Shown here: positions 3,274 to 47,481 of the stretch, in pieces
How the letters are laid out: the number at the start of each line of letters is the position of its first letter
Position numbering within the stretch: position 1 is the first letter of the stretch
Source of the DNA: Candidatus Woesearchaeota archaeon
Lineage (GTDB): Archaea > Nanobdellota > Nanobdellia > Woesearchaeales > JAHWHD01
DNA length: 62,483 nt
Reading direction: 5' to 3'
NCBI GenBank assembly: GCA_019323525.1
Contig: JAHWHD010000066.1
Span: 1-62,483, forward strand
Notes under the pieces: model-generated
Told to the model about the DNA's origin: nothing
Database searches by the model: none
The model's input: only the letters and a program-made list of their open reading frames with translations
Made by a program: the position numbers and the translations under genes

Positions 3274-3319
3274 TTAACGTCCTGAAAATAATTTAAAAAA
3301 AATATTAAAAAAATTAAAT

Positions 3320-3808: not shown

Positions 3809-3897
3809 TAATATCTACCTCCTTTTTTAAAAATTTTGTTCAATATATATAGATTTAAATACAATTCTGTGTTTTCTATTTATAAACGTTTCTATAT

Positions 3898-14011: not shown

Positions 14012-14869
14012 TTAATCCTTTCTCAAGAAAACAAGGTTTTTTTTGCCTCTTTTCTCCTTATAGATAACCTTCCTGTCCTCTAATTCCTTCAAAACCCGAG
14101 ATAAGCTCGCTTTTGAAAATCCAGTAGCAACCCTTAATGTCCCCTGTTCACAAGCACCTTCTTTAAGTTTTAAGACGTTAACTACCTGTTCTTCAGGCTG
14201 TTTAAGATGCCCCTCAAATGTTTTTGAATCAAAAGTTTTTGAAGCATCAACAATTATTTCATCAACTTTTTTATTAGCAAAGATAACAAACTTTGCAGCA
14301 AAAAAGACAAGAACCCCTGCTAAAACCACAACAACCCATAGAAAACTATACTTTTGATGCCTGAACCTCACAAAGAAATTAACATCATCAGATTCCTTAA
14401 TATCCTCAGAACTCCATTCAATCACTATACTCTTACCATCTGTAGTGATTAAATCAGCATCAGGAAATATTGATGTCGATCTTCCGTTCTCAATGCCTGT
14501 CTTAAGAACTGCGCCCTCGGGAAGTACAAGATTAATATTATAGATTCCATCAAAATCAGGTTTAAGGTCAAATACAAAATTGCTTTCATCAAGATACTTT
14601 TTAGTTACATAGCTAACTTTCACTTCCTGATTATCTTCTAATACTAAAACATCGGAATATTCAACAAGTTCGCCGTCTACGTATAAAGAGACACCTTTAG
14701 CATCATTAGGAACAGAAAAAGTATAATTACCAGTAACTGATCTTTGAAAATCTACAGTTTTTTCAGCAACAACATTGCTTCCCACAATACTGAAATCATA
14801 ATCAACAGAAACGGCTGTAACAGGAACAACGAATACAAACAGCATAAAAATTAGCAACAGTTTCTTCAT
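14012..14869 (-). CDS. membrane-tethered winged-helix transcriptional regulator (extracytoplasmic domain-TM-wHTH)
   Basis: A signal/anchor (MKKLLLIFMLFVFVVPVTA) precedes an outside domain of about 170 aa. A TM segment follows (FLWVVVVLAGVLVFFAAKFVIFA). The C-terminus is a MarR/TrmB-like wHTH (QGTLRVATGFSKASLSRVLKELEDRKVIYKEKRGKKNLVFL). Confidence 0.6.
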   Translation of the reverse strand: MKKLLLIFMLFVFVVPVTAVSVDYDFSIVGSNVVAEKTVDFQRSVTGNYTFSVPNDAKGVSLYVDGELVEYSDVLVLEDNQEVKVSYVTKKYLDESNFVFDLKPDFDGIYNINLVLPEGAVLKTGIENGRSTSIFPDADLITTDGKSIVIEWSSEDIKESDDVNFFVRFRHQKYSFLWVVVVLAGVLVFFAAKFVIFANKKVDEIIVDASKTFDSKTFEGHLKQPEEQVVNVLKLKEGACEQGTLRVATGFSKASLSRVLKELEDRKVIYKEKRGKKNLVFLRKD

Positions 14870-16182: not shown

Positions 16183-17652
16183 ATGAAGCAATACAAGCTT
16201 TACATTAATGGTAAATGGGTTAACTCTAGTTCTAGTAAGACCTTCAAAACCTACAACCCAGCAAACAAGAAACCTCTTGCAGTTTTCCAGGAAGGAACTG
16301 AGAAAGATGTAATGAAAGCAATAGCTGCAGGAGAGAAAGCTTACATAAAATGGTCATCATTACCTGCACCTAAAAGAGCCCAGTACCTTTTCGTAATTTC
16401 AAACTTGTTAAGAGAAAACAAGGAACGTCTTGCTAAACTCATCACTTTAGAGATGGGAAAAGTCCTGGTAGAAGCAAGAGGCGATGTACAGGAGGCTATC
16501 GACATATTCGAGTACATGGCTGGAGAAGGAAGAAGATTATTTGGCCATACCACGCCATCTGAACTTCCTGACAAGTTCTGCATGACTGTAAGAAGACCTA
16601 TAGGCGTTGTCGGGATTATAACTCCATGGAACTTTCCAATCGCGCTTCCTGCATGGAAGATAGCCCCTGCACTGATCTGCGGCAATTCAATCATCTTCAA
16701 ACCATCTTCAGACACCCCATTATGCGCTCTAGAACTTGTCAAGATACTTGAACAAGCCCAGTTACCTTCTGGAATTATTAACTTTATTCCAGGCCCTGGC
16801 AGCTCAGTAGGTTCAGAAATAGTAAAGAACCCAAAGATTCGGGCAGTATCGTTCACAGGCTCAACAATAACAGGTAAATGGATCACAGAAAACGCAGGTG
16901 TAAAAAAGCTTGGCTTAGAACTTGGCGGCAAGAACCCAATCATTATAATGGATGATGCTAACCTAGACCTTGCTGTTGACGGAATAATCTGGGGCGCTTT
17001 TGGAACAACAGGCCAGAGATGCACTGCAACCTCTAGAGTTATTGTGCATAAAAAAATAAAAAAGAAACTAGAAAAAAGACTGCTAAAAAGAGTAAGGAAA
17101 CTTAAACTCGGCTCTGGATTGAACCCAAAAACAGACATCGGACCTTTAATAAACAAAGCAGCAGTCGAAAAAGTAACAAACTATGTAAATTCAGGTAAAG
17201 AGCAAGGAGCTAAACTCTTATGCGGCGGCTCAACACCGAAAATAAAAGGATTTTTCTTTAACCCAACAATTTTCACAAATGTCAAGAAGGATATGAACAT
17301 AGCTAAAGAAGAGATCTTTGGCCCTGTTCTTTCAATTATTCCTGTTAAAGATATCGACCAGGCAATTGAAGTCGCAAACTCAGTAGAATACGGGCTGAGT
17401 TCCTCAATCTACACACAAGACATGAAATATGCATTCAAAGCAATCAACAAAATCGAAGCAGGAATCACATATATCAACTCAAGCACTATAGGTTCAGAAG
17501 TTCATCTTCCATTTGGCGGAATTAAGCATACAGGCAACGGCACAAGAGAGGCGGGGATAGAAGGGATTAACGAGTTCTCAGAAACAAAAACAGTCTATGT
17601 AGATTATTCAGATAAACTGCAGAAAGCGCAGATAGACCTTTACGAAAAATGA
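16183..17652 (+). CDS. NAD(P)+-dependent aldehyde dehydrogenase (possibly succinate-semialdehyde dehydrogenase)
   Basis: LELGGKNP, the catalytic Cys in GQRCTA, the EEIFGPV motif and FTGST are present. Length is 489 aa. The substrate guess rests only on the adjacent class III aminotransferase. Confidence 0.85.
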   Translation: MKQYKLYINGKWVNSSSSKTFKTYNPANKKPLAVFQEGTEKDVMKAIAAGEKAYIKWSSLPAPKRAQYLFVISNLLRENKERLAKLITLEMGKVLVEARGDVQEAIDIFEYMAGEGRRLFGHTTPSELPDKFCMTVRRPIGVVGIITPWNFPIALPAWKIAPALICGNSIIFKPSSDTPLCALELVKILEQAQLPSGIINFIPGPGSSVGSEIVKNPKIRAVSFTGSTITGKWITENAGVKKLGLELGGKNPIIIMDDANLDLAVDGIIWGAFGTTGQRCTATSRVIVHKKIKKKLEKRLLKRVRKLKLGSGLNPKTDIGPLINKAAVEKVTNYVNSGKEQGAKLLCGGSTPKIKGFFFNPTIFTNVKKDMNIAKEEIFGPVLSIIPVKDIDQAIEVANSVEYGLSSSIYTQDMKYAFKAINKIEAGITYINSSTIGSEVHLPFGGIKHTGNGTREAGIEGINEFSETKTVYVDYSDKLQKAQIDLYEK

Positions 17653-18953
17653 GCAAATACAAATGTCAAAGCATTGGACCTAAATCAAGGTCAGTTATCA
17701 GAAGGGATAAGAAAGTGATATCGCCATCTTTAACAAGAGAATTTGACTTTGTCTACAAAAAAGCAAAAGGAATGTACGTGTGGGATGAGGATGGAAGAAA
17801 ATACCTGGACTTTTCATCAGGCCTTGCTGTTCTTAACTCTGGCCACAACCATCCAGAGATTATCAAGGCGATAAACAAACAGCTGATATCAGGAATGCAT
17901 ATGGGTTTTGCAGACTTCTACTCCAAACTTCCAGTCGAATACGCTGAAAAGCTTCTTTCTTTAATGCCAAGGATGGACAAGGTCTTTTTCGCAAACTCAG
18001 GCACTGAAGCAAATGAAGCCGCATTTAAACTGTGCCGCTATCACACAAAAAGAAAAAAGTTCATTTCATTCACACCAAGCTTTCACGGCAGAACAATGGG
18101 AAGCCTATCTCTGCAGGATACAGGCGTGCCCGCTCACAAAAAAGGGTTTGAACCATTCTTTGAAGTACACCACCCACCTTATGGTTATTGTTACAGGTGC
18201 GCTTATGGCCAAGAATACGGAAAATGCGGATTTGAATGCATCAAAGCTGTTGAAAATTTAACTAAAAAAGACAAGGACTGCGCAGGGATGTTCTATGAAC
18301 CAGTAATGGGGGAACCAGGTTATGTTGTACCTCCGATAGAATTCGTAAAAGGAATTAGAGAAATCTGCGACAAAAACAACATACTGCTATGCGCAGACGA
18401 GATCCAGTCAGGAGCTTTCAGGACAGGAAAGTTTCTTGCAAGCGAGAATTTCAAAGTTAAGAATGACATAGTAACCCTTGGCAAAGGACTAGGAGGCGGA
18501 CTTCCCACAGGGATTATGGTGTCTAACAACAAGGTAATGACTTGGGAACCCGGAAGCCATGCAAACACCTTTGGAGGAAACTTTTTAGTATGCGCAGCAG
18601 GTCTTGCGTTCTTAGATATCGCGAAAAAAGAAAAACTTGCAGAAAGAGCTAAACATGCTGGCCGATATTTGCTGAAAAGAGTAAAAGAACTGTACGGTGA
18701 ATACGAAATTATCGGTGATGTACGCGGCCTTGGCCTGATGATCGGCATTGAATTTGTAAAGAACAGAAAAACAAAAGCATACGCTGTTAAAGAGAAAAAC
18801 AAGATACTATGCAAAAGCATCCAAAAAGGGTTATTGCTGCTGCCTGCTGGAAAGTCCTCAATAAGATTTTCTCCTCCATTGATCGTAAAGAGAAAACAGA
18901 TAGATCTTGCTCTTGATATATTCGAAGATGCGATAAAAGAGGTATCAAAATGA
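17649..18953 (+). CDS. class III PLP aminotransferase (4-aminobutyrate/ornithine aminotransferase-like)
   Basis: SGLAVLNSGHNHP, NSGTEANE, DEIQSG and the TLGKGLGGG PLP-lysine motif are present. It overlaps the ALDH gene by 4 nt. Confidence 0.85.
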   Translation: MSKYKCQSIGPKSRSVIRRDKKVISPSLTREFDFVYKKAKGMYVWDEDGRKYLDFSSGLAVLNSGHNHPEIIKAINKQLISGMHMGFADFYSKLPVEYAEKLLSLMPRMDKVFFANSGTEANEAAFKLCRYHTKRKKFISFTPSFHGRTMGSLSLQDTGVPAHKKGFEPFFEVHHPPYGYCYRCAYGQEYGKCGFECIKAVENLTKKDKDCAGMFYEPVMGEPGYVVPPIEFVKGIREICDKNNILLCADEIQSGAFRTGKFLASENFKVKNDIVTLGKGLGGGLPTGIMVSNNKVMTWEPGSHANTFGGNFLVCAAGLAFLDIAKKEKLAERAKHAGRYLLKRVKELYGEYEIIGDVRGLGLMIGIEFVKNRKTKAYAVKEKNKILCKSIQKGLLLLPAGKSSIRFSPPLIVKRKQIDLALDIFEDAIKEVSK

Positions 18954-21116: not shown

Positions 21117-21186
21117 CACTACAAAAACGATTTCTTAGGTTATACATGGGGCTGTAGTATAACCTGGCCAGAACGGCTGGCTCCAG

Positions 21187-21262
21187 ACTTATTACTGGAG
21201 CGATGAGGCAATATGCCGATGATTATTCGCATGGTATGTCAGACATCAGCTCTGAGGAAGAT
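21187..21262 (+). other. tRNA-Trp intron 1 (76 nt, canonical 37/38 position)
   Basis: It is the sequence between G37 (21186) and A38 (21263). The boundary is ambiguous by 1 nt because A flanks both sides. The intron 5' part, CTGGAGC, pairs with the exon GCTCCAG. Confidence 0.65.
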
Positions 21263-21284
21263 ACCAGCAAATCTGGGTTCGAAT

Positions 21285-21305
21285 CGACCACAATGTCACG
21301 AGAGT
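21285..21305 (+). other. tRNA-Trp intron 2 (21 nt, non-canonical, in T-loop at about 60/61)
   Basis: TTCGAAT is separated from its T-stem 3' strand CCCAG by CGACCACAATGTCACGAGAGT. Removing this segment restores a perfect 5-bp T stem. The boundary is ambiguous by 1 nt. Confidence 0.6.
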
Positions 21306-21318
21306 CCCAGCAGCCCCA

Positions 21319-21330: not shown

Positions 21331-21345
21331 AAAACTTTAAATATA
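21331..21345 (+). promoter_or_regulatory. BRE/TATA promoter (AAAACTTTAAATATA) for the first island gene
   Basis: The TATA centre lies about 26 nt upstream of ATG 21367, which suggests a leaderless mRNA. The same cTTTAAATA core recurs at 25257 and 29821. Confidence 0.45.
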
Positions 21346-21366
21346 CTTTACCACTTCTTAGGGGTT

Positions 21367-22911
21367 ATGGGGGCTATAAGGGATAGAGCAGGAAATGGAA
21401 CACGAAGCACAGACACATCCTCAGAACTATGGATGGCAAGTAGAAGCCGATACACGCAAGTAATCAACAGAAGAGGCATCGTCTGGGACTATCTGGGAGA
21501 TATAATTAACAGATATACCAATTATCTGAAGAGCGTATTTTCTAGCAATCCAGAAAACAAAAGAGCTGCAAAAAGAGAGGAGATATTAGTAGAAATAGAA
21601 AAACTAGAAGATATTAAGAACCTGAACATGCTTTGGTACCGTCCATACAGGTGGAATGGCCTCTCATCATTCTTACTTGAAGAATACCCTGGAAAATATA
21701 AGGAGTATCCACCACTTACTAAAGAGCAGTTAAAGGAATTCTTTATGAAGTCATACGAGCTTATGGATAAGGCAGACGCACCATCAACCTGTCCTGAAGG
21801 AAAACCACCCAGTATTCATTTTCTTGAGACATTCGAAAAATTTTGCGAAACATATGAAAAAGAAGAAGGAGAAGAGGACATAGATTTGAGCAATAACTTT
21901 TTGAAAGGTGATGAGTGCAGTGACCAACAAGCAAATTTACAGACTAGAGCCGCTATAACATGCTTATGTAACATGATGTTTAACACTGCCAGCGAATTTT
22001 ATAATGATGGATATATCGCATCATGGAAAGGCGTGTTTAGAGATGCGGCAGAATATGCAGAATGCGACAAATTCAGGGCGTTAGAAACATTATTCACAAA
22101 AGTCGCAGAGCACAGATCTGCAAGAAAAAGAATAAGCGAATATATTTCCTGCAAAACAAAGAGAGCTGCCAAGATTGGAAAAATAGGGCTTACAACTACA
22201 GCTATTGTTGGTGCATGTTACGCAGGCCTATTATTTACTGGACTGTTTGACACATTTGCAAAAGAAGCTAAAAACGCCGGATGGAACAGAACTGCAGCAA
22301 TATTTAGACATTTAGACCAAGCACCAAAATCATTTTTTAGAGGTTCAAAAAAACTACAAGAAAAAATAAAGCAGCCGATAAAAGTAACAGCGTCCGCGAG
22401 ATTTGATTCTCCAGAACCGACACCAACCAAACCATCCACAAAAACACCGAGACCAACGCCAACACCCACAATAGACTACCAAAAACTATTGAACAGTTAT
22501 AGCAGCAAAGCAGTCACTTACCGTGCTGCTCTTGCAAAAGAGGATACTGATATTGGAAAACTAACTCAACAAATCCAGGAAAGTTATTCTGGATTTAGAA
22601 GCTTAGAACCAGAGTTCAAGTCTAGAAATTTAGATTATACAGGAATCAAAAAAAGCTTAGAAGGATATCTAAGGACAGCTAATGATAAATCAAAAACAAC
22701 GAGTAAGCTAGCTGGCGACATAAAATCATACCAAGCAGCAATGTCTAGTTTCGTTAAGGGAAAACACTCAACAGCTGAATGGTGCAAATGGCTTGAAGCG
22801 TATGAAAAGAAAAGAGACAGACTTCTTAAGAGAATAAAAGACCCTGCAAAAACAAAAGCAGTTAAGTCAGGTTACGACAAATTTGTTGACGAGTACATTA
22901 AAAACAATTAG
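21367..22911 (+). CDS. orphan bitopic membrane protein (island gene A)
   Basis: The 514-aa protein has a single TM near residue 275 (IGKIGLTTTAIVGACYAGLLFTGLF). A Pro/Thr linker (PEPTPTKPSTKTPRPTPTPT) and a helical C-terminal domain follow. I recognise no family. Confidence 0.55.
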   Translation: MGAIRDRAGNGTRSTDTSSELWMASRSRYTQVINRRGIVWDYLGDIINRYTNYLKSVFSSNPENKRAAKREEILVEIEKLEDIKNLNMLWYRPYRWNGLSSFLLEEYPGKYKEYPPLTKEQLKEFFMKSYELMDKADAPSTCPEGKPPSIHFLETFEKFCETYEKEEGEEDIDLSNNFLKGDECSDQQANLQTRAAITCLCNMMFNTASEFYNDGYIASWKGVFRDAAEYAECDKFRALETLFTKVAEHRSARKRISEYISCKTKRAAKIGKIGLTTTAIVGACYAGLLFTGLFDTFAKEAKNAGWNRTAAIFRHLDQAPKSFFRGSKKLQEKIKQPIKVTASARFDSPEPTPTKPSTKTPRPTPTPTIDYQKLLNSYSSKAVTYRAALAKEDTDIGKLTQQIQESYSGFRSLEPEFKSRNLDYTGIKKSLEGYLRTANDKSKTTSKLAGDIKSYQAAMSSFVKGKHSTAEWCKWLEAYEKKRDRLLKRIKDPAKTKAVKSGYDKFVDEYIKNN

Positions 22912-23350
22912 AGATAAATTCTATAACAGGTTTATGATAGCCTGTCAGATATGAAGCTGTACCCAAGATACTTAAACCCGCGATAATACATGCTCCAGCA
23001 ACAATCGCATTATCAATAGTACAGTGCTTGTTAGCAAAATCCTTGAAACCCTCAACACAAGTATTGAGCATGTTCTTTGCCCTTGTTGAATAGCTGTTGA
23101 TTTTTTCTATAGCTAATTCAGTCCTGTACCTTGCATAAGCATCTCTTGGAGTTATACCGGGATTCTCTGTAAGAATCTTATTATAGGCTCGTTCTAAGTC
23201 ATTACCTGAACCTGCGCACATCTTCATAAAATCATACTTCTGCTGTAGATTATCAAGTTTATCCTTTAGTAAAGAACTCTCTTTATCAGCAGCCTTCAGA
23301 CTAAGATCGACTATTCTTGACAAACCTCTAAAATCGTTATCCTCTGACAT
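22898..23350 (-). CDS. orphan tail-anchored membrane protein (island gene B)
   Basis: I prefer the ATG at 23350 (MSEDNDFRG...). A TTTTTTAAAC TATA-like box lies about 25 nt upstream, consistent with a leaderless transcript. The C-terminal TM is AIVAGACIIAGLSILGTASYLTGY. It overlaps gene A convergently by 14 nt. Confidence 0.5.
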   Translation of the reverse strand: MSEDNDFRGLSRIVDLSLKAADKESSLLKDKLDNLQQKYDFMKMCAGSGNDLERAYNKILTENPGITPRDAYARYRTELAIEKINSYSTRAKNMLNTCVEGFKDFANKHCTIDNAIVAGACIIAGLSILGTASYLTGYHKPVIEFISNCF

Positions 23351-23479
23351 GACTATTACAAAACATGAATAGTTTAAAAAACTTGTTGTTTTCACTACTC
23401 GAAAATACTAAAACAATAGAAAACTTTATATATTTTTGAGCTCATGCTAGATAAATATAGTATTAATAGGGGGATAATT

Positions 23480-25222
23480 ATGGTTGATGATAAAATTGAT
23501 GGACTTGAGCATGATAGGGATAGCTGGACTATTTTCTGGACAAATGTTAGCGCTCACTATGAAACACAAGGTGCTAAGACTATAGAGATTTATCCTCACT
23601 TTAAATCCTATATCAAAGAACAAGGAATCACAATCACCCCTGATAACATCCCAGAAACTGAAGAATTCTGTGCAGGTCTTGACAGCTACCTACTTGAAAA
23701 AGGATACACAAATGGCAATGGCTGGACATCAGAAATATTAGGATGGACTGAAGACGAGAAGCAAAGGAGAATCGTAGGCGCTAAAGTAAAGACTGTTATT
23801 GACGATCTGCTTAAAAAAATCGAAAATTTTGATAAGCAAGACGAGCCAACAAAAGCAGCTGTTGCTGGAGCAATCATTGCTGGCGGATTTGGATCCAATA
23901 CCCTTAAACAGGCAATAATCGCTAAAGACATTAAGAACGCTGAAGTCTATACAAGATCAGGACTTAACCAAGGAATGTATCAAGCTCTAATACAAGAGAT
24001 TGTTGAAATGCCTTCAGCACAGATGCAGACTTCTAAACAATATGGAGATTTATTGGAGATGTTAAGGCAGAACCACTGCAGGGATGTTGTAAAGCCTCAT
24101 ACTAAAGAAGTTATTGAAAAAACAGTTTTCGAAGTTCTTAACGAGAAACGAGAAGCATACCTTCAATTAAAAGAAACCCAAGAGGCAAGGCAAGAAGGTA
24201 CAGTAGACAGAAAGAGGCTTGACGATAAAGCAGACCAGAACCTTGCAGAAACAAAAGGTGTTCGACAGGTGGCTTCTACTATAAAATCATACCTAGACGC
24301 CGTTATAAATTGGGGTAGAGAAAACAAGAAAAACCTCGCATACGGAACTATCGGAGTGGTTTTGTTAGGCGGTCTTGGGATAGCGGGTATTGTCTATAAG
24401 TCACACAATGCTGCTAAACAAGCTGAAAAAGCTCGGATTGAAGCTTCAGAAACAAGAAAGACAGTTAATAACACTGCTAAAAAAGTTGAAGTTGTACAGA
24501 AAGAAGCAGATGCAGCACGTAAAGAGACAAAGCAAAGGCACAGCCTTGCACAGATGCTAGATGTATACTATAATGACGCTAAAAAAGCAAAAGGCTTTGA
24601 CGATGTCGCTTCAATGTACCTTATGGGCCATGAGGTAGAAGACTCAAAAAGTTTTGTATCAGCAGCAGCCACAATAGGCACAAGCGATCAAGCTTTGATA
24701 CAAGATAATGTTCCAAAGTTCAAGGAAGTTACACAGAGAAGAGCTTCTTACATAGCAAGGTCATTGTTTGACAAGGCTGTAGAGTTCGAACCAGATAACC
24801 TTAGCCTTAACAAGCTGCTTGTTAATTACAAGCATCTGCACCCTAAACGAAAAGTAACTTACATTGGAGATGCACTCTATGCTCTTGCTCAGAACCAACA
24901 ATTCAAAGCAAAGATGCCAGAAGAGTTAAAGCCTTTGTTCGGCAACATCGAGAGAACAGTAAGTGAAGCTAAAAAATCCGGCTTTAACAGAAGACGGAGT
25001 ACTTTGCAGCTGATACGGAAGTTTGTTGCAGATATTAATAACGAATCTAGACTTCAGGGAAAGGCGCTTGACAAGGCTTTAAAAAATGAATGGGTCTGGA
25101 AAGTTGACAGTATAACTCCTTTCACAGAAATCTGGTATAAAAGATTAGACGAGCTTGAAAAAGAAGCTGAAGGAGACAACTCAAAAGAGGACGTAAGGCA
25201 GCTGTTGTTTAAAACCAAATGA
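23480..25222 (+). CDS. orphan bitopic coiled-coil membrane protein (island gene C)
   Basis: I prefer the ATG at 23480, after AGGGGGAT. The track start at 23444 lies too close to the TATA box at 23425-23433. A central TM (LAYGTIGVVLLGGLGIAGIVY) is followed by a K/E/A coiled coil. Confidence 0.55.
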   Translation: MVDDKIDGLEHDRDSWTIFWTNVSAHYETQGAKTIEIYPHFKSYIKEQGITITPDNIPETEEFCAGLDSYLLEKGYTNGNGWTSEILGWTEDEKQRRIVGAKVKTVIDDLLKKIENFDKQDEPTKAAVAGAIIAGGFGSNTLKQAIIAKDIKNAEVYTRSGLNQGMYQALIQEIVEMPSAQMQTSKQYGDLLEMLRQNHCRDVVKPHTKEVIEKTVFEVLNEKREAYLQLKETQEARQEGTVDRKRLDDKADQNLAETKGVRQVASTIKSYLDAVINWGRENKKNLAYGTIGVVLLGGLGIAGIVYKSHNAAKQAEKARIEASETRKTVNNTAKKVEVVQKEADAARKETKQRHSLAQMLDVYYNDAKKAKGFDDVASMYLMGHEVEDSKSFVSAAATIGTSDQALIQDNVPKFKEVTQRRASYIARSLFDKAVEFEPDNLSLNKLLVNYKHLHPKRKVTYIGDALYALAQNQQFKAKMPEELKPLFGNIERTVSEAKKSGFNRRRSTLQLIRKFVADINNESRLQGKALDKALKNEWVWKVDSITPFTEIWYKRLDELEKEAEGDNSKEDVRQLLFKTK

Positions 25223-25257
25223 TGTTGTCACTCCAACATACTAACAACAACGAAAGC

Positions 25258-25266
25258 TTTAAATAT
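25258..25266 (+). promoter_or_regulatory. TATA box (gcTTTAAATAT) for island genes D-E
   Basis: It lies about 40 nt upstream of ATG 25302. GAGGGGA sits 7 nt before the ATG. Confidence 0.4.
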
Positions 25267-25301
25267 TATCGCAATTTTGCAATCAAATCGAGGGGATTTT
25301 A

Positions 25302-27959
25302 ATGAAAAGACATTATAAAACAGCATTATTCGCATTAGGACTTCACCTAGCAGGAATGGTTAGTCCAGTACTTGGCGCACTTGATGATTCTAAATATAAT
25401 CAAATAAGAACACAGCAAATTCTAGCACAAACTGAATATGAACGTTCAAGTTCAGCTGCAAAAGAAGCTGTTTTAAGCCACCTTGAAGATAAAGCGCTCT
25501 CTTACCATAGAGAAGCTCGTTCTGGAGGCAACGCCTTTGTAAATTCAAGAACATTATCAACTTTCCGAATTATTAAGCCGTATGCTCAAAGAGAAGGTAA
25601 GAAAGTTTCAAGACTCTTAGCTGAAAAATGCGTAGACCCTATTGGCAAAGAATTCGGCTATGGACTAATAGGAAAAGACTGTGTTGGATTATCCACGTAT
25701 AAGGATGATAAAAACGGAACCGTAAGATTCCAGTTACAGGATTATACTGGTGCAAAGAAAGCGTCGATTACTGTTACATATGGAACTGCAGTCGCTTCAA
25801 GACCAGCACCTTCAGCACCCTCAACAGAAGCAACAGCTGCTGAAGCAGCAAGAGGTATGCCTGTAGAAGGAATCAAAGATTATGCTCGTAGCGCACATAC
25901 AAGAGCAGTGGACAGATTAGCTGCTGACAGATCAGCAGCCACAGCACAACCAGAAAGCCGTAAAGAAAGATTAAGAAATATTAGACAGATACTATATCAA
26001 TTGCGTCAAACTAGATCTAAAGCTGGCCCACAAGACACCCCACGAGCAGAAGAAACAGGAGCAACCACGCCTGCTCCAAGTCCAAGATCTGCTCAACCAG
26101 TTCAACCAACACAAGCTCTAGCAAGAGTCGAAAAAACATCTTGGAACGAAGCAAGAGGAGAATACAGAAAAGGTTCATACGGCGTAAGTGGAGATAAGCT
26201 ATGGTTTACTCAAAAATATACTGGAAAATCAAGCACTGATGGTTACTTTAACTCAACATGGCAGTTAAGCCCAAGCCAAACAAAAAAGATCTGGGGGTCT
26301 AACAAGGAGCTTGCAGATTTAGTATTCCAATATATCAAGAAAGACTCTAAACTAAATAAAGGCCTTAAAGACGGCACATGGGAGTTCACATTCTCAGGTG
26401 AAAAAGTAACAGGAGCTAAACACACTGCAGGCTTTAGGTCTGCTCCAGAGTATTCTTCAGTTCCAAGCGCTTCTCCAAGAGCAACAAGAAGAAACGGAAA
26501 AATCGAAAGACCTTCAGAATCGTTTGAATATACAAAAGTTGACAAACTTTTCGATAATAACGCCGACAAAGCAAGACACAAAATAGACTTTACTGGTAAA
26601 CCGATAAAGGTAAGAAAAGCTGCACTAGAATATTTAGTGGGTGATTTCGCGAACGACGTTACAAACGTTAGATATCACGGAATTTCTACAACAGATCAAA
26701 TTACTGGCAACTATCTTAGAGATCGTGCAATGTTGTCGTTTAAGTTGAAGAATGGAAGGAGCATTTGGAAAGCGCTAAGAGACGTAACAGAACCAAAAGA
26801 TTTCTTTCCAGGACAATATGGTCTTCAAGATAAAGAGATCAAACTTGATCTAGGTAGGAAGAAAGCAGAAGTTGCACCTCCAGCACCAATCCCACCACCT
26901 CCCGTTCCAGAACCGCAAACAAGACCTTTTGCTAAAAAACCAATAACAATTCCAGAAGCACCAGGATACGAACTTGACGATAACAGCTTACTGACAATTC
27001 CAACCGACTTAGGCGACTTATCAAAAATAGTTATCCCTGCAAGCAAGATATTCAAACCAGGAGTTGATCCTAGCACAGTTAATCCAAGAAGAGCTGGTAA
27101 AAATTACCAACCATGGGCTTATGACCTACACAAGATTCTTGCAAGATCTGCAAGGAGAGATACAAGGAACGACAGGAGAGTCACATTCAAAGGTCTAAAA
27201 GGACGGCATTTAATCTCTGCACTTAATAATCATTGGACATCATGGAGTCCTTCAAGATCAGATTATGCACTGTTCAATCGCAGAAATGTATTAGGCAGAA
27301 AAAACAGAGGAAACGTAGACAGAGAAGTATTCAAGAGGCTAAAAGACGGCATAGACGGTTATGAACTAAGAAGCATGCTGAAAGGACTCGAATACCTTTA
27401 CTTAGTCAAAGACAATAACGTAACATTTGGCCAGTTCAAAAAAGCTGGAAGCAAACTTGAAGATATGATGCAAGGCGCTTTCAACAGATATCACAAAAAA
27501 TCAGTTGGCAGGTTCATGAACGACAGGCTAAACCCTGTTAATATCGCTAAAGGTCTTGGAAAAGACTTAGAAACCATTGCGCACGCAGTCACATTCAAGA
27601 GAGACGAAGACGGAAAAAGGGTTAAGTTCTTCAGATTCCTAGGAAGTGCAGCAAACATATGCACAGTTAACGCAGGAGCAAGGCAACTTGCCTGGAACAA
27701 AAAGGTAGCAAAGCTCCACAACATAGGAAGAATCGCCAAACCTGTATACGAAATAGGTAAGACAATAGAAGGCAAGAAAGACTTCAGAGCAGGAACCACA
27801 GGAGGGAATGTTCTAAACATAGGACAGATACTCTGCCGTCGTAAGGTTAAAAAATCAAGCCCAACAACCCCTCCACCGCCAGGAGTTAATGGCGGAGTTA
27901 TATGGGAAGGCAATCCAACGATAACTAGACCAGTCATAATAAGACCAAGCAGATCATAA
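25302..27959 (+). CDS. orphan secreted, basic, multi-domain protein with proline-rich linkers (island gene D)
   Basis: The 885-aa protein has a signal peptide (MKRHYKTALFALGLHLAGMVSPVLGA). Its linkers are SRPAPSAPS, TTPAPSPRSAQPVQPTQ, APPAPIPPPPVPEPQTRP and SSPTTPPPPG. It is rich in R and K. I recognise no family. Confidence 0.6.
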   Translation: MKRHYKTALFALGLHLAGMVSPVLGALDDSKYNQIRTQQILAQTEYERSSSAAKEAVLSHLEDKALSYHREARSGGNAFVNSRTLSTFRIIKPYAQREGKKVSRLLAEKCVDPIGKEFGYGLIGKDCVGLSTYKDDKNGTVRFQLQDYTGAKKASITVTYGTAVASRPAPSAPSTEATAAEAARGMPVEGIKDYARSAHTRAVDRLAADRSAATAQPESRKERLRNIRQILYQLRQTRSKAGPQDTPRAEETGATTPAPSPRSAQPVQPTQALARVEKTSWNEARGEYRKGSYGVSGDKLWFTQKYTGKSSTDGYFNSTWQLSPSQTKKIWGSNKELADLVFQYIKKDSKLNKGLKDGTWEFTFSGEKVTGAKHTAGFRSAPEYSSVPSASPRATRRNGKIERPSESFEYTKVDKLFDNNADKARHKIDFTGKPIKVRKAALEYLVGDFANDVTNVRYHGISTTDQITGNYLRDRAMLSFKLKNGRSIWKALRDVTEPKDFFPGQYGLQDKEIKLDLGRKKAEVAPPAPIPPPPVPEPQTRPFAKKPITIPEAPGYELDDNSLLTIPTDLGDLSKIVIPASKIFKPGVDPSTVNPRRAGKNYQPWAYDLHKILARSARRDTRNDRRVTFKGLKGRHLISALNNHWTSWSPSRSDYALFNRRNVLGRKNRGNVDREVFKRLKDGIDGYELRSMLKGLEYLYLVKDNNVTFGQFKKAGSKLEDMMQGAFNRYHKKSVGRFMNDRLNPVNIAKGLGKDLETIAHAVTFKRDEDGKRVKFFRFLGSAANICTVNAGARQLAWNKKVAKLHNIGRIAKPVYEIGKTIEGKKDFRAGTTGGNVLNIGQILCRRKVKKSSPTTPPPPGVNGGVIWEGNPTITRPVIIRPSRS

Positions 27960-27975
27960 CGAGGTGTTTAAAAAA

Positions 27976-29772
27976 ATGAAAAAAATATTCGGATTATTGA
28001 TTGTATTCATTGTATGCTTAGGCATAGTCGGAGCTGAGGTTACTCAGCACGTCACATTCGTTGACGTTAATACCCAACCTCTAGGCGGAGACAGCATTAT
28101 ACTGTTCTATGACCAGCTGACAGACGGATCGCTGGTTTATCAAGGAGAATCAACAGTCTCAGGCACAGGCGCAGACATTGTATACGCGACAAACATTCCT
28201 GCAGGAGTACAAGACTACTGGACATTCTTCCTTAAAGACGGCTACTTACCATGGTTCATGGAAAACGATTATAGTGGAACTGGCGAAGTGGATTACAATG
28301 CAAAATTCCTTAAAGCCGCAGACTGCCACGCACCTATACGTGAACCAAAGGTCCTTAATGTAGACGACCCTACACTACCAGTACTAATAAATGTTGAGAC
28401 TGAGGTAGACGGTTCAGTCTACTCACCATTTATATTCAATCCACAACGTCCAGACGTGAGCAACTTTATCAGGCAAGAGTTCAAAGGTCACACTTATGAA
28501 GATCACTTCTCAGCTACTACAAATGTTAACTTAATAATCTATGATTCAAACGGTAACGAGGTACACTCAGAAACGCAATCAATGGAATTGTTTGTAGACG
28601 AATCAGAACTTTTCCAATTTACTTGGTACCCTGCAGAGGACGGAGAGTATAACTTCACAGTATACTCTGAAGTAGTTGACAACCAGTGCAGTTCAAGCAG
28701 GATAGAAGATGCAAGCATTGTACGTGACGTTTACAGGAGAACTGACCTGAGAAACTCATGCGACGCATCTATACCTTCAGGCATCACACTAACACCTGTT
28801 GAGCCTGTTGTTAACCAGGAAGCAACAATCTCAGGTACAAAGAGAACAACTTACTACGACTCTTCACTTGACGAGACAACAGTACCTACTAATCTATATT
28901 TAACTATCTGGGACAGCCAAGGTAATGAAGTTCATAGAGACTCGCAATCGCTCCCTGCTAATCTTGACGAGGACCAGCCAGAAGCGTTTGAATTCAAGTG
29001 GACTCCTCAAGCAGAAGGTGTTTACAACCTTGAGCTAGCAGTAGTCGCTGACAGTGACCTATGCACAAACATGAACACACCAGAGATACACACTCTAGGT
29101 TTCACAGTAGGTACATCTTCAGTAAACTACGCGCCAAGCATCTCAACTATACCGGACAGGAACGTCAACCTAGGCACAACATCTACATGGCAGATTGACC
29201 TATGGCAGTATACCCAAGACGAGACTGCTGATGACCAGCTGACATTCTCAATGTCAGAATCCAACACAACTCCAATTGACTGTTCACTGGATAATAATAG
29301 ATACATCACATGCGGCCAGGCAAATCAACTAGGAACTAACACCATCACAGTGACAGCTTCAGACGGAACATTACAGACGTCAAAAAGCTTTAATGTAAAC
29401 GTATTAAAGGTATCGTCACCAGACGACGAAACAAAAGAAGATGAAGACTTCGGCGAAGGACTCTACATCTCAAGCCTTACTCTAAAGAACGGAGAGGTAC
29501 TTTACCCTGGTGAAGACCTGTTTACAAGAGTCACAGTAAAAAATCTAGGCAATGACCTGGAAGATGTTACAGTTACTGCAGTAATCCCTGATCTTGGCAT
29601 AAGGCGAAGAGCAGGACCTTTTGACATCGACCACAATGACCAGCACGAAACCAAGTTAATCCTTGACATACCTGAATATGCAGAGCCAGGAGAATACGCT
29701 GTAAGGTTTGTCATGAGAGACGCGGACAACGAGATATACAGAGTCAAGCACAGAGTCATCGAAATCATTTAA
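27976..29772 (+). CDS. secreted surface protein with repeated Ig-like/CARDB-like and cadherin-like modules
   Basis: The ATG at 27976 follows GAGGTG and gives the signal peptide MKKIFGLLIVFIVCLGIVGA. Two modules look paralogous: NLIIYDSNGNEVHSETQS...FTWYPAEDGEYNF and LTIWDSQGNEVHRDSQS...FKWTPQAEGVYNL. A segment resembles a cadherin-like domain (NYAPSISTIPDRNVNLG...ITVTASDG). The C-terminal module is CARDB-like (VTVKNLGNDLEDVTVTAVIPDLG...PGEYAVRF). Confidence 0.65.
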   Translation: MKKIFGLLIVFIVCLGIVGAEVTQHVTFVDVNTQPLGGDSIILFYDQLTDGSLVYQGESTVSGTGADIVYATNIPAGVQDYWTFFLKDGYLPWFMENDYSGTGEVDYNAKFLKAADCHAPIREPKVLNVDDPTLPVLINVETEVDGSVYSPFIFNPQRPDVSNFIRQEFKGHTYEDHFSATTNVNLIIYDSNGNEVHSETQSMELFVDESELFQFTWYPAEDGEYNFTVYSEVVDNQCSSSRIEDASIVRDVYRRTDLRNSCDASIPSGITLTPVEPVVNQEATISGTKRTTYYDSSLDETTVPTNLYLTIWDSQGNEVHRDSQSLPANLDEDQPEAFEFKWTPQAEGVYNLELAVVADSDLCTNMNTPEIHTLGFTVGTSSVNYAPSISTIPDRNVNLGTTSTWQIDLWQYTQDETADDQLTFSMSESNTTPIDCSLDNNRYITCGQANQLGTNTITVTASDGTLQTSKSFNVNVLKVSSPDDETKEDEDFGEGLYISSLTLKNGEVLYPGEDLFTRVTVKNLGNDLEDVTVTAVIPDLGIRRRAGPFDIDHNDQHETKLILDIPEYAEPGEYAVRFVMRDADNEIYRVKHRVIEII

Positions 29773-29889: not shown

Positions 29890-31140
29890 ATGAATAGCAA
29901 GTTCAAAATTTTGGGGGTATTGACAGTATTTCTAATCGTAGCTCTAGCTGCAACAGTTAGCGCTTTACCATCAATCGAGGAAGTAAAGGTTAATGGTAAC
30001 GAGTATAAAGCAAATACTGTTATAGAAAGAGCTGATACACTTGAGCTAAAGCTTGAAGTGTTTGCTCAGAATAACGAGACTGATATTCAGATCTCTGCGG
30101 AGATTCTAGGTTACGAGTACAGCGACTTCGAAGACCTAGAAGACACCACACACAACTTTGACATGACAGCAGGAGACACCGAGTTCAAGACATTAAAACT
30201 TAAGATTCCTGAAGAGATGGACAAAGACTACTTTGACGTAAGAGTTAGAGTAGGTACAAAAACAGGTTCATCTAATGAATACCTTTACAGGATCCATGTT
30301 AAAGGCGACAGACACCTATTAAAGATTAAGAAAGTGTATCTAAGCCCTGAAAACGAAGTCAAGGCAGGAGGCACTTTAATCGCAAAGGTTAAGGTTAAGA
30401 ACATCGGCGAACAAGACGAAGACGATGTCTCAGTAAGAGTAGCTATCCCTGAACTAGGCCTTTCAGAGGTTGAGCCAATGGGCGAAATCGAAGAAGGCGA
30501 GACAGAGACAAGCGAGGAACTCTATCTAAGGATACCAAGAGATGCAGAAGCTGGCGAATACACAGCTGTTGTAACTGTTGAGTATGATGAATACGAGAAA
30601 GTTACACAAGAGTACCCAGTTGAAGTCCTTGCAAGCGAGACTCTTAAACAAGAACCAAAGGCTGATGAAAAACCTGCTGTAATCCAAGTTTCTGTTGAGA
30701 AACAGGATGTTACAAAAGGCCAAGCTGGCGCAATCTACCCTGTTACAATAAGTAACCCTGGTAGTGAAGCTAAGACATTCACCCTTACTGCAGACGCAGA
30801 ATGGGCAGACATCAGAGTAAGTCCTTCAAACGTTGTTGTTGTAAACAGTGAAGACTCAGAAGTTGTCTATGTTTATGTCTCAGCTAAAGACACAGCAGCA
30901 GCTGGAGAACAGGTTTTCGGTCTTGAGGTTAAATCAGGCGAAGAAGCAAAATCAGTCACTCTAAAGGCAAATGTTTTAGAAGCTCCTAAGAGCGGTTCAA
31001 ACACAAAGAGAGTCCTAGAGATTGGCTTGATCGTGCTAGTCATCATCTTGGTAATCGTTGGCCTTGTAGTTGCTTTCAGCAGAGGCAGGAAAGACGAAGA
31101 CCTAGAAGAGCCTGAAGTAGCTGACCAAACCTATTATTAA
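29890..31140 (+). CDS. C-terminally membrane-anchored surface protein (S-layer/envelope candidate) with CARDB-like domains
   Basis: A signal peptide is present. The module VKVKNIGEQDEDDVSVRVAIPELG...AGEYTAVVTV parallels the C-terminal module of the upstream gene. A C-terminal TM (VLEIGLIVLVIILVIVGLVVAF) is followed by a charged tail. Confidence 0.65.
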   Translation: MNSKFKILGVLTVFLIVALAATVSALPSIEEVKVNGNEYKANTVIERADTLELKLEVFAQNNETDIQISAEILGYEYSDFEDLEDTTHNFDMTAGDTEFKTLKLKIPEEMDKDYFDVRVRVGTKTGSSNEYLYRIHVKGDRHLLKIKKVYLSPENEVKAGGTLIAKVKVKNIGEQDEDDVSVRVAIPELGLSEVEPMGEIEEGETETSEELYLRIPRDAEAGEYTAVVTVEYDEYEKVTQEYPVEVLASETLKQEPKADEKPAVIQVSVEKQDVTKGQAGAIYPVTISNPGSEAKTFTLTADAEWADIRVSPSNVVVVNSEDSEVVYVYVSAKDTAAAGEQVFGLEVKSGEEAKSVTLKANVLEAPKSGSNTKRVLEIGLIVLVIILVIVGLVVAFSRGRKDEDLEEPEVADQTYY

Positions 31141-31170
31141 TTTTTTTCTTTTAACCTATTTTTCTTTTAT
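31141..31170 (+). terminator. T-rich terminator region
   Basis: TTTTTTTCTTTTAACCTATTTTTCTTTT lies directly after the stop at 31140. Confidence 0.4.
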
Positions 31171-31215
31171 TATATACATTGATTTACTAGCCAGCTAGAA
31201 CCAACGGGGTTAAAA

Positions 31216-32910
31216 ATGAAAATAATACACATAATACCGATAATCCTCATTTTAGTCATAAGCGCATCAGCCCTTTCAGAGGATTTCTCTCTAGAATCGC
31301 TCAAGGAGGATATTACACTTTGCACGTCATCCCCGGATGTTGCTGATATCCTGACAATTACCAATACAGGCATTATCCCTGGCACTTACCACATCAAAGT
31401 ATCAGGAGACATTGCAGAGTTCACAACCTTATCACAAACATCATTCTCATTAGAACCTGCAGACTCTCTAGACGTGTTCGTATACATAAGGGCGCCTAAC
31501 ACAGGTAAACACACATTGAATATTAACATGTACACTGATTTTGGTCTTGAGAAATCATTCCAAAAAGAAGTAATAATCAACAACTGTCAAAACCTGCTTA
31601 TTTTCCCAAAAACATGGTCTCATACTACAGCACCATGCCAGGCAGCAACATTTGAGTTTGAGATATTTAACACAGGAGACTACACTGAAGTATACGAGAT
31701 AAAAACAGCCTCAGAATTCGCAGAGTTAAGCCATAATCCTGCTATAATCGAACCAAACACTGCGCAGCCTGTTTTTGTATACACAACGCCTGGGTGCGAG
31801 TTGTACGGCAACCAAAACTTTGAGGTCCAAGTAACAGCCAAAACCAGCGGCTACAAGGCAACATTCCCTCTATACCTTAACATTCTGCCACTGTACAATT
31901 TTTCATTGGCCAGCCAAGAAGAGTATTCTGTATGCGAATCATCAGACACGCAGATTCCAATCAAGCTATCTAACAAAGCAGAGCTTCAGAACGCGTACAA
32001 GCTAACTCTTAACTCTCCAAGATGGGTCAAACTAGACAAAAAATACCCAATACTTGCTCCAAAACAAGAAGCCCAGATTAACCTAAACATAACAGACCCA
32101 AAAGAAGGTGCTTACAATATCACGATCAAAGCAGAGAGCCTGCTCGGCGATCTATACCTTGAAAAGTCATTCATCCTCTATGTTACAAAGTGTCACGAGT
32201 TTGAACTAAAGCTTCCAGGTGATAAAGACACTATTTGCGCATCTACCACAAAAAGACATTCAATTGAAGTGATAAACAAAGGAACAGATGAAACAACGCT
32301 TGACCTGAGCTTGGAAGCTCCTGAATGGGTAAGTCTCTCAGAATACGAACTCACCCTGGAACCTAACTCGTCTGAAAACATTATTTTGATGGCAAACCCT
32401 CCTGAAGATGTCACAGGCAAACACAACATAGAGATAAAAGCTGCAGTGGGCTCTCTCATCAAATCTGAAAAAATGCAACTTGAAGTAATCACAGGCAAAC
32501 AATGCACTGCTTTCGAATTCCAGTCATCTAAAAACATCAATGTCGAGCAGTTCCACCAGATGTTAAAGCTTCCTGTAGCAAACAGCGGCGCTGAACAAGA
32601 CACGTTCATAATTAATATCGATGGGCCAGAATTCATAACCTTAGCTACAGACGAACTCACTCTTGAGCCTGGAGAGGCAAGCTATATTGAACTTGAGATA
32701 AACCCTGGCAACAGCACAGGAACATATGAGGTACTTATACAAGCATCTGGAAAAGAGCAGTCATATTCAGATGTGTTCAAGATCAAAATTGGCGAGAGCC
32801 AGTTCTTGGAATTTTTAAGGATATATCTTCTATACGTCATTATCGGCATAGCAATCATTCTCGTCATAACAGGAGTTCTTAAGCTAAGAGAACTAAAATC
32901 CAAAAAATAG
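31216..32910 (+). CDS. C-terminally membrane-anchored surface protein with repeated beta-sandwich-like modules
   Basis: The 564-aa protein has a signal peptide and repeated E(F/W)xxLSxxxxxLEPxxxxxI modules. A C-terminal TM (IYLLYVIIGIAIILVITGVL) is followed by a KK tail. Several N-x-S/T sequons are present (NFS, NIT x2, NSS, NST). Confidence 0.6.
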   Translation: MKIIHIIPIILILVISASALSEDFSLESLKEDITLCTSSPDVADILTITNTGIIPGTYHIKVSGDIAEFTTLSQTSFSLEPADSLDVFVYIRAPNTGKHTLNINMYTDFGLEKSFQKEVIINNCQNLLIFPKTWSHTTAPCQAATFEFEIFNTGDYTEVYEIKTASEFAELSHNPAIIEPNTAQPVFVYTTPGCELYGNQNFEVQVTAKTSGYKATFPLYLNILPLYNFSLASQEEYSVCESSDTQIPIKLSNKAELQNAYKLTLNSPRWVKLDKKYPILAPKQEAQINLNITDPKEGAYNITIKAESLLGDLYLEKSFILYVTKCHEFELKLPGDKDTICASTTKRHSIEVINKGTDETTLDLSLEAPEWVSLSEYELTLEPNSSENIILMANPPEDVTGKHNIEIKAAVGSLIKSEKMQLEVITGKQCTAFEFQSSKNINVEQFHQMLKLPVANSGAEQDTFIINIDGPEFITLATDELTLEPGEASYIELEINPGNSTGTYEVLIQASGKEQSYSDVFKIKIGESQFLEFLRIYLLYVIIGIAIILVITGVLKLRELKSKK

Positions 32911-41121: not shown

Positions 41122-41155
41122 ATTTAAATCCCCCTTTTTTGAGAAGCTATCAAGC

Positions 41156-41177
41156 CTTTTTATAGATTTCTATAGTC
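41156..41177. repeat. 22-nt exact direct repeat, copy 1 (CTTTTTATAGATTTCTATAGTC)
   Basis: It is identical to 41960-41981. It lies just beyond the stop of the 253-aa methyltransferase gene. On the minus strand it reads TIEIYKK in frame after that stop. Confidence 0.85.
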
Positions 41178-47416: not shown

Positions 47417-47481
47417 AGATAGCTCATCAGCTCAGACAGGTGGTTTTTATAGAAGAAAAAAAAGAAGAGCGATCTAAAGTG

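Follow-up and report, generated by a model that had tools for sequence, protein, structure and literature searches.

Four highly divergent genes held in fixed order beside tRNA-Trp at the head of a woesearchaeal cell-envelope cluster

The contig JAHWHD010000066.1 (assembly GCA_019323525.1) of a Candidatus Woesearchaeota archaeon, analysed over its full 62,483 nucleotides and called the window below, contains an envelope region of this DPANN organism in which four genes, A to D, adjoin a tRNA-Trp gene ahead of a series of cell-surface genes. The four are real genes, long open reading frames (ORFs) maintained intact in four lineages; inheritance is vertical, gene order does not change and the set is restricted to one clade, and their promoters and protein architectures are conserved throughout the four lineages. 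Per residue, the A to D proteins retain 10-30 times less similarity than the flanking genes do. On balance we think it somewhat probable that the set (tRNA-Trp, A, B, C and D-E) is a vertically inherited, clade-restricted module that forms a co-regulated, membrane-anchored envelope complex. An earlier sequence-only reading had described A (514 aa), B (150 aa, on the opposite strand), C (about 580 aa) and D (885 aa), and the ORF listing agrees with it on sizes and places (Table 1).

Conserved order and divergence of genes A to D

The sequence-only reading recognised no family in A to D, and profile libraries and PDB sequences bear it out. Searches of Pfam, PHROGs and NCBIfam return nothing significant, the models of anti-phage defence systems in PADLOC give no match at E<=0.1, and none of A, C and D matches a PDB sequence. 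With A, C or D as query, a word-indexed search of 5.8 billion protein clusters finds only the queries themselves; they seem orphans there because the prefilter is blind at this level of divergence, and the collection does contain the orthologues. When D is run exhaustively with HMMER against 1.84 billion representatives, three relatives appear (E=5e-17, 2e-11 and 3e-11), all matching D residues ~563-866 only. Public copies are without exception labelled "hypothetical protein" and come from Candidatus Woesearchaeota or Nanoarchaeota metagenome-assembled genomes (MAGs). In the literature we found no paper describing this module.

Four lineages are compared. The window strain recurs in four other samples (L001-L004, 99.97-100% DNA identity). 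A Nanoarchaeota MAG was found through its flanking M42 peptidase (82% identity) and is represented by contig L005 and by another contig of the same MAG, L028. The remaining two lineages come from two of the three D relatives of the HMMER search: a Joint Genome Institute (JGI) metagenome contig, L023, and L025, to which L024, L026 and L027 are 100% identical; this last group includes a 209-kb contig of GCA_019323515.1. The M42 peptidase search also gives two Woesearchaeota MAGs at 49-57% identity, and contigs L006 and L007 lose synteny directly after the peptidase. For the A, B and C families, the distribution is traced through synteny only.

The order of genes in the four lineages is permease, tRNA-Trp, A (+), B (-), C (+), D (+), E, F, G, FAD oxidoreductase, small ORF and AglB, and the gene content, order and strands of A to D are the same in all of them. 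In L005 the permease is followed by tRNA-Trp, a gene for a bitopic 597-aa protein (+), a gene for a tail-anchored protein of ~390-410 aa (-) and a gene starting MVDDK (+), where the contig ends; L028 starts with the third D relative and goes on through the counterparts of D, E, F and G to the FAD oxidoreductase, the small ORF and AglB. Since L005 and L028 come from one MAG, together they represent the fourth lineage with a complete locus. A, B, C and D are thus conserved as a gene set in relatives, with strand pattern and neighbours kept, and this supports the idea of the sequence-only reading that the four genes belong together. More distant relatives, reached through the permease (~40% identical) in a metagenome scan, show no tRNA-Trp and no comparable module downstream. 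On present data the module appears confined to a narrow clade.

The proteins on either side of the block are 56-86% identical among lineages (with one exception at 31%), and F is 56-76% identical. A, B and C keep 17-33% identity, mostly over partial alignments, and D keeps only its C-terminal domain, at 28-34%. Between the window and L005 or L028, for example, the upstream flanking proteins show 74-86% identity with three exceptions, and the values within the block are 23% over 179 aa for A, 32% over 62 aa for B, 24% over 122 aa for C and 32% for the C-terminal domain of D; downstream they are 37% for E, 76% for F, 55% for G, 66% for the FAD oxidoreductase and 78% for AglB. The three exceptions are a protein with a helix-turn-helix (HTH) domain (56% identical to L005), a DUF5667 protein (79%, central half only) and a class-III aminotransferase, which is 31% identical to the L005 gene at the same position and 73% identical to that of L025; this suggests a paralogue or a xenologue replacement in L005. 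L025 is without the M42 peptidase gene between the class-III aminotransferase and the permease.

Expressed as bits per residue over all lineage pairs, similarity is 1.2-1.8 for the flanks, 1.0-1.3 for F, 0.5-1.05 for E and G, and 0.04-0.20 for A to D (0.39 where D is compared with the partial C-terminal fragment in L028). Positional orthology is supported by pairwise E-values of 2.5e-10 for A, 4e-11 for C, 1e-28 for D and 1e-5 for B. Comparison at the strain level is uninformative for the ratio of non-synonymous to synonymous polymorphism (pN/pS), the five samples of the window strain being 99.97-100% identical and the four samples of the L025 strain identical.

Protein architectures and promoters

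The sequence-only reading took A and C as bitopic, B as tail-anchored and D as bearing a signal peptide; hydropathy agrees, and the layout is kept in orthologues, the segment in A being marginal. Protein A has one central, weakly hydrophobic transmembrane (TM) segment rich in Gly, Ala and Thr (residues ~273-291, Kyte-Doolittle 1.58), preceded by a cytoplasmic N-domain and followed by a Pro/Thr linker and an external helical domain ending GYDKFVDEY; it is bitopic, probably with its N-terminus inside. Its orthologues in L005, L023 and L025 align at 20-27% identity (E down to 2.5e-10, in an alignment of nearly full length), and the family alignment shows W[YF][RK]P..GGL.EFLF..YPPL in the N-domain and GYDKLVD.YMKN at the C-terminus. 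The A-family profile gives marginal long-helix matches among PDB sequences, to CHIP (E=0.006) and influenza HA2 (E=0.013), which we regard as coiled-coil composition and not as homology.

Protein B consists of a cytoplasmic helical, coiled-coil-like part, a TM segment at 115-133 and an external tail of 15-20 aa. The cytoplasmic part takes up 114 aa in the window against 154-389 aa in orthologues (150-426 aa for the whole protein across lineages), and the family keeps a post-TM tail motif, Y.TG.H..V.E..SN. Protein C is bitopic, with a central Gly-rich TM segment (287-305), an acidic N-side (isoelectric point, pI, 5.4) and a basic C-side (pI 9.5). Its orthologue in L023 is found at E=4e-11; that in L025 was assigned by position and is linked through L023 (E=9e-7 between L023 and L025, only E=0.1 between the window and L025), and that in L005 is linked by its N-terminus. 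TM positions in A, B and C are conserved among orthologues, and the segments are rich in Gly, Ala and Thr, with Kyte-Doolittle values of 1.3-2.1 against 2.5-3.5 in E, F and G.

Residues ~297-388 of C, the TM segment and the helical segment after it, give weak matches to PHROGs 214, 739 and 89 (E=7e-4 to 0.05), families of Rz-like spanins. A spanin assignment was rejected: no gene for an o-spanin, a holin or an endolysin lies close by, the E-value for NCBIfam LysB is 0.99, and TM plus coiled-coil composition explains the match best. All-against-all BLAST gives no paralogy among A to D, and profile-profile comparison gives none for the A and C or the C and D families; a 28-nt, 82% DNA match between A and C is probably due to chance and has no protein-level significance. 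The Ig-like, CARDB and NF033506-type domains that Pfam and NCBIfam find in E, F and G are not found in A to D.

Protein D begins with a signal-peptide-like N-terminus (positively charged at first, then an Ala/Gly/Leu core, then small residues; all three full-length orthologues have it), continues with a variable N-terminal region of ~560 aa containing Ala/Pro-rich linkers, and ends in the conserved domain. It is strongly basic (pI 10.1 and net charge +66 in the window; pI 9.5-10.1 and +26 to +66 across lineages, with pI 10.1-10.7 for the C-terminal domain). Motifs of that domain are LH+ILAR..RRDTRND, GR.NR.NV, AFN.Y..KS..RF.N.R.NPV and GR..RAGT. AlphaFold2 (AF2) run on the single D sequence gives a mean predicted local distance difference test (pLDDT) score of 38, which is expected without an alignment and so is not evidence of disorder; with a four-sequence alignment of the C-terminal domain, residues 10-175 are modelled with an alpha/beta core at pLDDT 62-89, with low confidence beyond. 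Foldseek with this model finds nothing in the PDB (best E=6.4) or among BFVD viral models (best E=0.43), and the D-family profile has no match among PDB sequences. N-glycosylation sequons number 7 in D, against 16 expected from composition, and are depleted in E too.

Gene E starts 4 nt after the D stop codon and is probably co-transcribed with D, to judge from this gap; the adjacency is kept in L023, L025 and L028. The products of both genes are without a membrane anchor, unlike F and G, which are acidic, C-terminally anchored and conserved neighbours 3' of the module. E, F and G are all strongly acidic (pI 4.1-5.1). E is itself fast-evolving, with 37-45% identity between lineages, and is alignable over its N-terminal ~480 aa only.

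The gene A promoter is 87% identical between the window and L005, where the adjoining coding sequence is unalignable as DNA, and the B/C intergenic region is 77-84% identical between flanking coding sequences that are equally unalignable; these are the only parts of the block still alignable with L005 as DNA, and both were footprinted across the four lineages. The first codons of B and C are kept in relatives even though the coding sequences cannot be aligned.

One element, T[TC]AC[CT]ACT[CT] (TTTACYACTY), lies between the TATA box and ATG of A and again between the two TATA boxes of the B/C region, where it is followed by AAAATACTAAAA. Its positions in the relatives are 13192 and 16219 (L005), 5720 and 8146 (L025), and 4633 and 9924 (L023). 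In L005 and L025 it occurs only at the A and B/C promoters, the window has one additional intragenic match, and in L023 it stands at the A promoter and upstream of D. The element is suggestive as a candidate binding site for a common regulator.

The sequence-only reading had credited the four genes with strong promoters of their own; these are real, but generic. The common core of a B recognition element (BRE) and TATA box, CTTTAAATA, is indeed present at 21335, 25257 and 29821 (the reading had placed the first two one base off), and the related C box CTTTATATA is at 23425 just as it said. The same CTTTAAATA box is also found ahead of an unrelated gene (58173/58198), boxes of TTTAWATA type stand upstream of many genes of the window, and the count of CTTTAAATA in the window (4, against 1.7 expected) is not significant. 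A scan for promoters and terminators, its models covering bacterial sigma-70-type sites only, returned background-level counts. The ATG of gene A comes 31 nt after the start of its TATA box, and this fits the leaderless mRNA that had been proposed for it.

The tRNA-Trp gene and the surrounding locus

The block is the head of a cell-envelope supercluster of ~40 kb that comprises Ig-like surface proteins, an S-layer protein, AglB and genes for the synthesis of N-glycans and nonulosonic acid (Table 1).

Table 1. Positions of genes, promoters and other features in the window
Feature	Position	Strand	Size	Remarks
Central metabolism	1-21 kb			POR, ADP-forming acetyl-CoA synthetase-type domains, aminotransferases, aldehyde dehydrogenase, M42 peptidase, Trp/Tyr permease
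DUF5667 protein	12178-13434	-		34% Asp+Glu; ~17 tandem 15-nt units at 12948-13307
HTH-domain protein	14012-14869			
Class-III aminotransferase	17649-18953			
tRNA-Trp, as region	21.1-21.3 kb			followed by A-D
tRNA-Trp(CCA) with two introns	21148-21318	+		ARAGORN call after in-silico splicing
tRNA-Trp intron 1	21187-21262		76 nt	canonical position 37/38
tRNA-Trp intron 2	around 21285-21305		~20 nt	in the T-arm
Genes A-D, as region	21.4-28.0 kb			
Gene A promoter	21335-21356	+		BRE/TATA CTTTAAATA at 21335-21343; conserved element TTTACCACTT at 21347-21356
Gene A	21367-22911	+	514 aa	ORF listing
Gene B	22898-23350	-	150 aa	start fixed by first-codon conservation in relatives (MSED...)
Divergent B/C promoter region	23351-23479			B TATA TTTAAAAA as read on the + strand
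Conserved element of B/C region	23392-23415			TTCACTACTC..AAAATACTAAAA
Gene C BRE/TATA	23425-23433			CTTTATATA; plus ribosome-binding-like site GGGGGAT
Gene C	23480-25222	+	580 aa	start fixed by first-codon conservation in relatives (MVDD...)
Gene D BRE/TATA	25257-25265	+		CTTTAAATA, 44 nt before ATG; ribosome-binding-like site GAGGGGA
Gene D	25302-27959	+	885 aa	ORF listing
Conserved C-terminal domain of D	26988-27959	+	~290 aa conserved	residues ~563-885; pI 10.7
Genes E, F, G, as region	28.0-32.9 kb			acidic Ig-like or S-layer-type proteins
Gene E	27964-29772	+	602 aa	acidic Ig-like exported protein without membrane anchor
Genes F and G	29890-32910	+		F S-layer-type (NF033506, E=6e-32), G Ig-like; Pfam, NCBIfam
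Glycan cluster	33-62 kb			FAD oxidoreductase, AglB/STT3, long glycan and nonulosonic-acid synthesis cluster
AglB/STT3	34716-37481			
GT-C/PMT_2 proteins	41954-43531, 47440-49077, 52317-54011			three in addition to AglB/STT3
26-nt sequence, two copies	41152-41177, 41956-41981		26 nt	96% identical; contains palindrome CTATAGAAATCTATAG

A tRNA-Trp directly 5' of the block had been read from the letters, and in-silico splicing upholds it. The stretch shows an acceptor stem, a CCA anticodon stem-loop and a T-arm, broken at two points; neither ARAGORN nor Rfam (at the gathering cut-off and also at E<=10) reports a tRNA in the unspliced window, because two introns interrupt the gene, and ARAGORN calls tRNA-Trp(CCA) once both are taken out. 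Intron 1 carries GATGA...CTGA motifs resembling boxes C and D, conserved in L025 and L005; Rfam has no C/D match on the plus strand. In L005, L023 and L025 too, tRNA-Trp adjoins the A-like gene on its 5' side.

The number of introns differs among lineages (window 21148-21318, L025 5459-5700, L005 12216-13160). The L025 gene has the anticodon-loop intron only, part of its 5' exon recurring 86 nt upstream, and the L005 gene appears to hold additional T-arm interruptions. L005 also has a LAGLIDADG homing-endonuclease gene on the minus strand at 12341-13060 (Pfam LAGLIDADG_3, E=1e-9), flanked by copies of the tRNA-Trp 3' end, TCCCAGTAGCCCCA, at 12401 and 13146. The endonuclease gene either was inserted at the tRNA end, duplicating its target, or is carried by a very large intron of the T-arm; it lies upstream of the conserved gene A promoter, outside A to D. 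In L023 an extra 445-aa ORF (2825-4162, minus strand, no Pfam match), present in that lineage only, separates the permease from tRNA-Trp and is a second lineage-specific insertion beside the tRNA gene.

Besides AglB and the other GT-C/PMT_2 proteins, the glycan cluster contains Alg13/Alg14-like genes, three glycosyltransferase family 2 (GT2) genes, a flippase, four methyltransferases and a NeuB/PglD/DegT/cytidylyltransferase set for a nonulosonic acid. The two copies of the 26-nt sequence with CTATAGAAATCTATAG sit 5' of two consecutive genes of this cluster, for a GT2 protein and a methyltransferase, and may be a shared operator or terminator.

Readings of the module and related systems

A trans-envelope complex of A to D, as the sequence-only reading proposed, is plausible because topology and promoters are conserved, a promoter element is shared, D is coupled to E, the charges of D and its acidic neighbours are opposite, and the block stands at the head of an S-layer and glycosylation cluster; co-conservation and co-location of the four genes are found in four lineages. 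In such a complex A to D would be co-regulated and would form a membrane-spanning structure, joined by TM helices rich in small residues and by the helical parts outside. The cytoplasmic parts of A and B, and possibly of C, would connect through the TM helices to the external helical domains, and the complex would keep or arrange the basic D and the acidic, Ig-like E, both anchor-less, at the acidic S-layer surface; alternatively, it would present them to a partner (host) cell. The extreme divergence would reflect a loosely constrained helical, coiled-coil and linker architecture together with diversifying pressure at the cell surface.

Several points weigh against this reading. The complex is proposed from sequence, gene order and hydropathy, the topology of every protein was read from Kyte-Doolittle windows only, and the number of lineages, four, is small. 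The TM segment of A is marginal among its orthologues (1.3-2.05), the signal-like segment of D is weak (1.3-1.8), and the C orthologue in L005 stops after 170 aa, near the contig end. Sequon density fails to separate segments predicted to lie outside from those predicted inside, and is uninformative on topology because even E and F are sequon-poor. The significance of the shared promoter element is modest because the motif was defined after the sequences were seen. Finally, A and B change as quickly in their cytoplasmic parts as in their external ones; an arms race at the surface alone would not predict this, and it points to low structural constraint as a contributing cause. A more ambitious version takes A to E as a new archaeal trans-envelope apparatus for host recognition, attachment or bridging, in which B would be a coiled-coil "ruler", A and C would couple the cytoplasm to D, and D would dock on the acidic S-layer and present its hypervariable N-region and the Ig-like adhesin, the hypervariation tracking host specificity; we rate it as rather improbable.

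That A to D are functionally unrelated proteins of loosely constrained coiled-coil, linker or disordered type, drifting in sequence, with their order kept by regional synteny and no complex formed, is an unlikely account that still deserves real weight. It would explain why cytoplasmic and external parts diverge alike and why the length of B varies so widely, it agrees with the lack of paralogy or shared domains among the four and with a neighbourhood that is collinear as a whole, and the low AF2 confidence for D from a single sequence would fit it too, though this is expected without an alignment and is no evidence of disorder. Such drift is harder to reconcile with intact ORFs of 150-885 codons kept in a 39% GC genome and in four lineages, with conservation of motifs, TM positions, the B tail and the charge of D, with promoters and a shared promoter element that are conserved, or with the constant coupling of D and E. 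A hypervariable replacement locus, in which deep alleles under frequency-dependent selection (virus or host recognition) are swapped between genomes by recombination in conserved promoters and flanks instead of diverging where they are, strikes us as improbable. Similarity of A, B and C does not track the relatedness of the flanks, window A scoring 44-49 bits with L025 and L023 and 31 bits with L005, its nearest relative, but the similarities are near saturation and their ranking carries little signal. Conserved intergenic stretches could be recombination anchors, and raised non-synonymous variation is documented for hypothetical surface proteins of Nanoarchaeota (PMC6142677); gene content and order here never change, and same-strain samples, identical or nearly so, hold no allele variation to draw on.

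Two further readings concern D and the origin of the block. D might not be exported, being instead a basic cytoplasmic protein that binds nucleic acid or a membrane. Its high pI, above all in the C-terminal domain, its weak N-terminal hydrophobic segment and its shortage of sequons fit that idea, which we nevertheless find quite improbable: all three full-length orthologues have the signal-like N-terminus, the D gene abuts that of the exported Ig-like E in every lineage, and E, which is clearly exported, is equally poor in sequons. As to origin, we consider it highly improbable that the block was acquired as a genomic island at the 3' end of tRNA-Trp or is what remains there of an integrated virus or mobile element; in the sense of acquired DNA, the sequence-only reading's "island" finds no support. 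The block does lie directly 3' of a tRNA, its proteins belong to no known family, C has its weak PHROG matches, and the LAGLIDADG gene between duplicated tRNA 3' ends in L005 means that the site can receive insertions. That insertion, though, is upstream of the A promoter and no part of A to D, and in all four lineages the block keeps one position, its A promoter following directly on the tRNA. Composition is ordinary: G+C content (GC) is 0.384 for A, 0.364 for B, 0.398 for C and 0.411 for D against a window mean of 0.388 (standard deviation 0.025), and GC at third codon positions (GC3) is 0.28-0.34 against 0.358 (0.041). The higher G+C that had been read from two samples of D (50 and 42, against 31-33 elsewhere) is a sampling artefact, mean 100-nt values being 41.2 for D, 39.5-42.0 for the POR genes and 40.8 for AglB; windows of 50-55% in D code for its Ala/Pro/Arg-rich linkers, and both samples taken from D fall in segments of this kind. 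Pfam scans of the window's listed ORFs of at least 150 aa (overlapping shadow ORFs excluded) show no integrase or recombinase and no reverse transcriptase, and a repeat search of the window finds no copy of the tRNA-Trp 3' end (an att repeat) beyond 21318. For a diversity-generating retroelement there is likewise no reverse transcriptase, and no repeat pair in the window involves A to D except the 28-nt A/C match. Profiles of the A and D families have no relatives in 2.9 million viral contigs, and the viral structure models searched with D gave none.

DPANN archaea, Woesearchaeota included, are abundant and for the most part uncultured. A host-attached life is presumed for them, and the proteins of their contact surfaces are almost uncharacterised. 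The locus described here is a concrete candidate, with four families without known relatives in a fixed arrangement and with co-conserved promoters. It is also a methodological example, since word-indexed searches miss orthologues that synteny and exhaustive HMMER searches recover. If the module consists only of loosely constrained structural proteins, its interest is modest and clade-specific.

Several known systems resemble parts of the module. Tail-anchored coiled-coil proteins bridge membranes in eukaryotes, as in the KASH-SUN (LINC) and SNARE-type systems. B is analogous to these in layout, with a variable cytoplasmic coiled-coil-like part, a C-terminal TM segment and a short conserved tail on the far side, and its gene sits beside those of the bitopic helical partners A and C; the analogy is one of layout only, as no similarity of sequence or fold to B was found and the organism here is a single-membrane archaeon. 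Rz-like i-spanins of phages are roughly 130-180 aa long with an N-terminal TM segment, unlike C with its 580 aa and central TM segment. As in tRNA-linked genomic islands, the block begins right after a tRNA 3' end and encodes proteins of no known family, but there is no integrase, no flanking duplicated tRNA end, no compositional shift, and the block is present in every relative compared. Hypervariable "replacement" surface loci, such as the O-antigen, S-layer or pilin loci of bacteria and haloarchaea, usually change in gene content. They share with our locus conserved flanks around surface genes that are almost unrecognisable between close relatives; here, however, change is confined to the coding sequence, and content, order, strands and internal promoters stay constant.

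Within DPANN archaea, structures of host contact are under active study in co-cultures (PMC11329633). Jarett et al. (2018, Microbiome 6:161; PMC6142677) found that hypothetical surface proteins of Nanoarchaeota vary fast, and proposed roles in host recognition. Those proteins, judged akin by description only, are likewise uncharacterised single-TM proteins of a DPANN symbiont with a high rate of amino-acid change compared with housekeeping genes. The variation there is density of single-nucleotide polymorphisms within a population, whereas here it is divergence between lineages near saturation, and the genes described here form a fixed four-gene module with conserved promoters and architecture in which the cytoplasmic domains diverge too.

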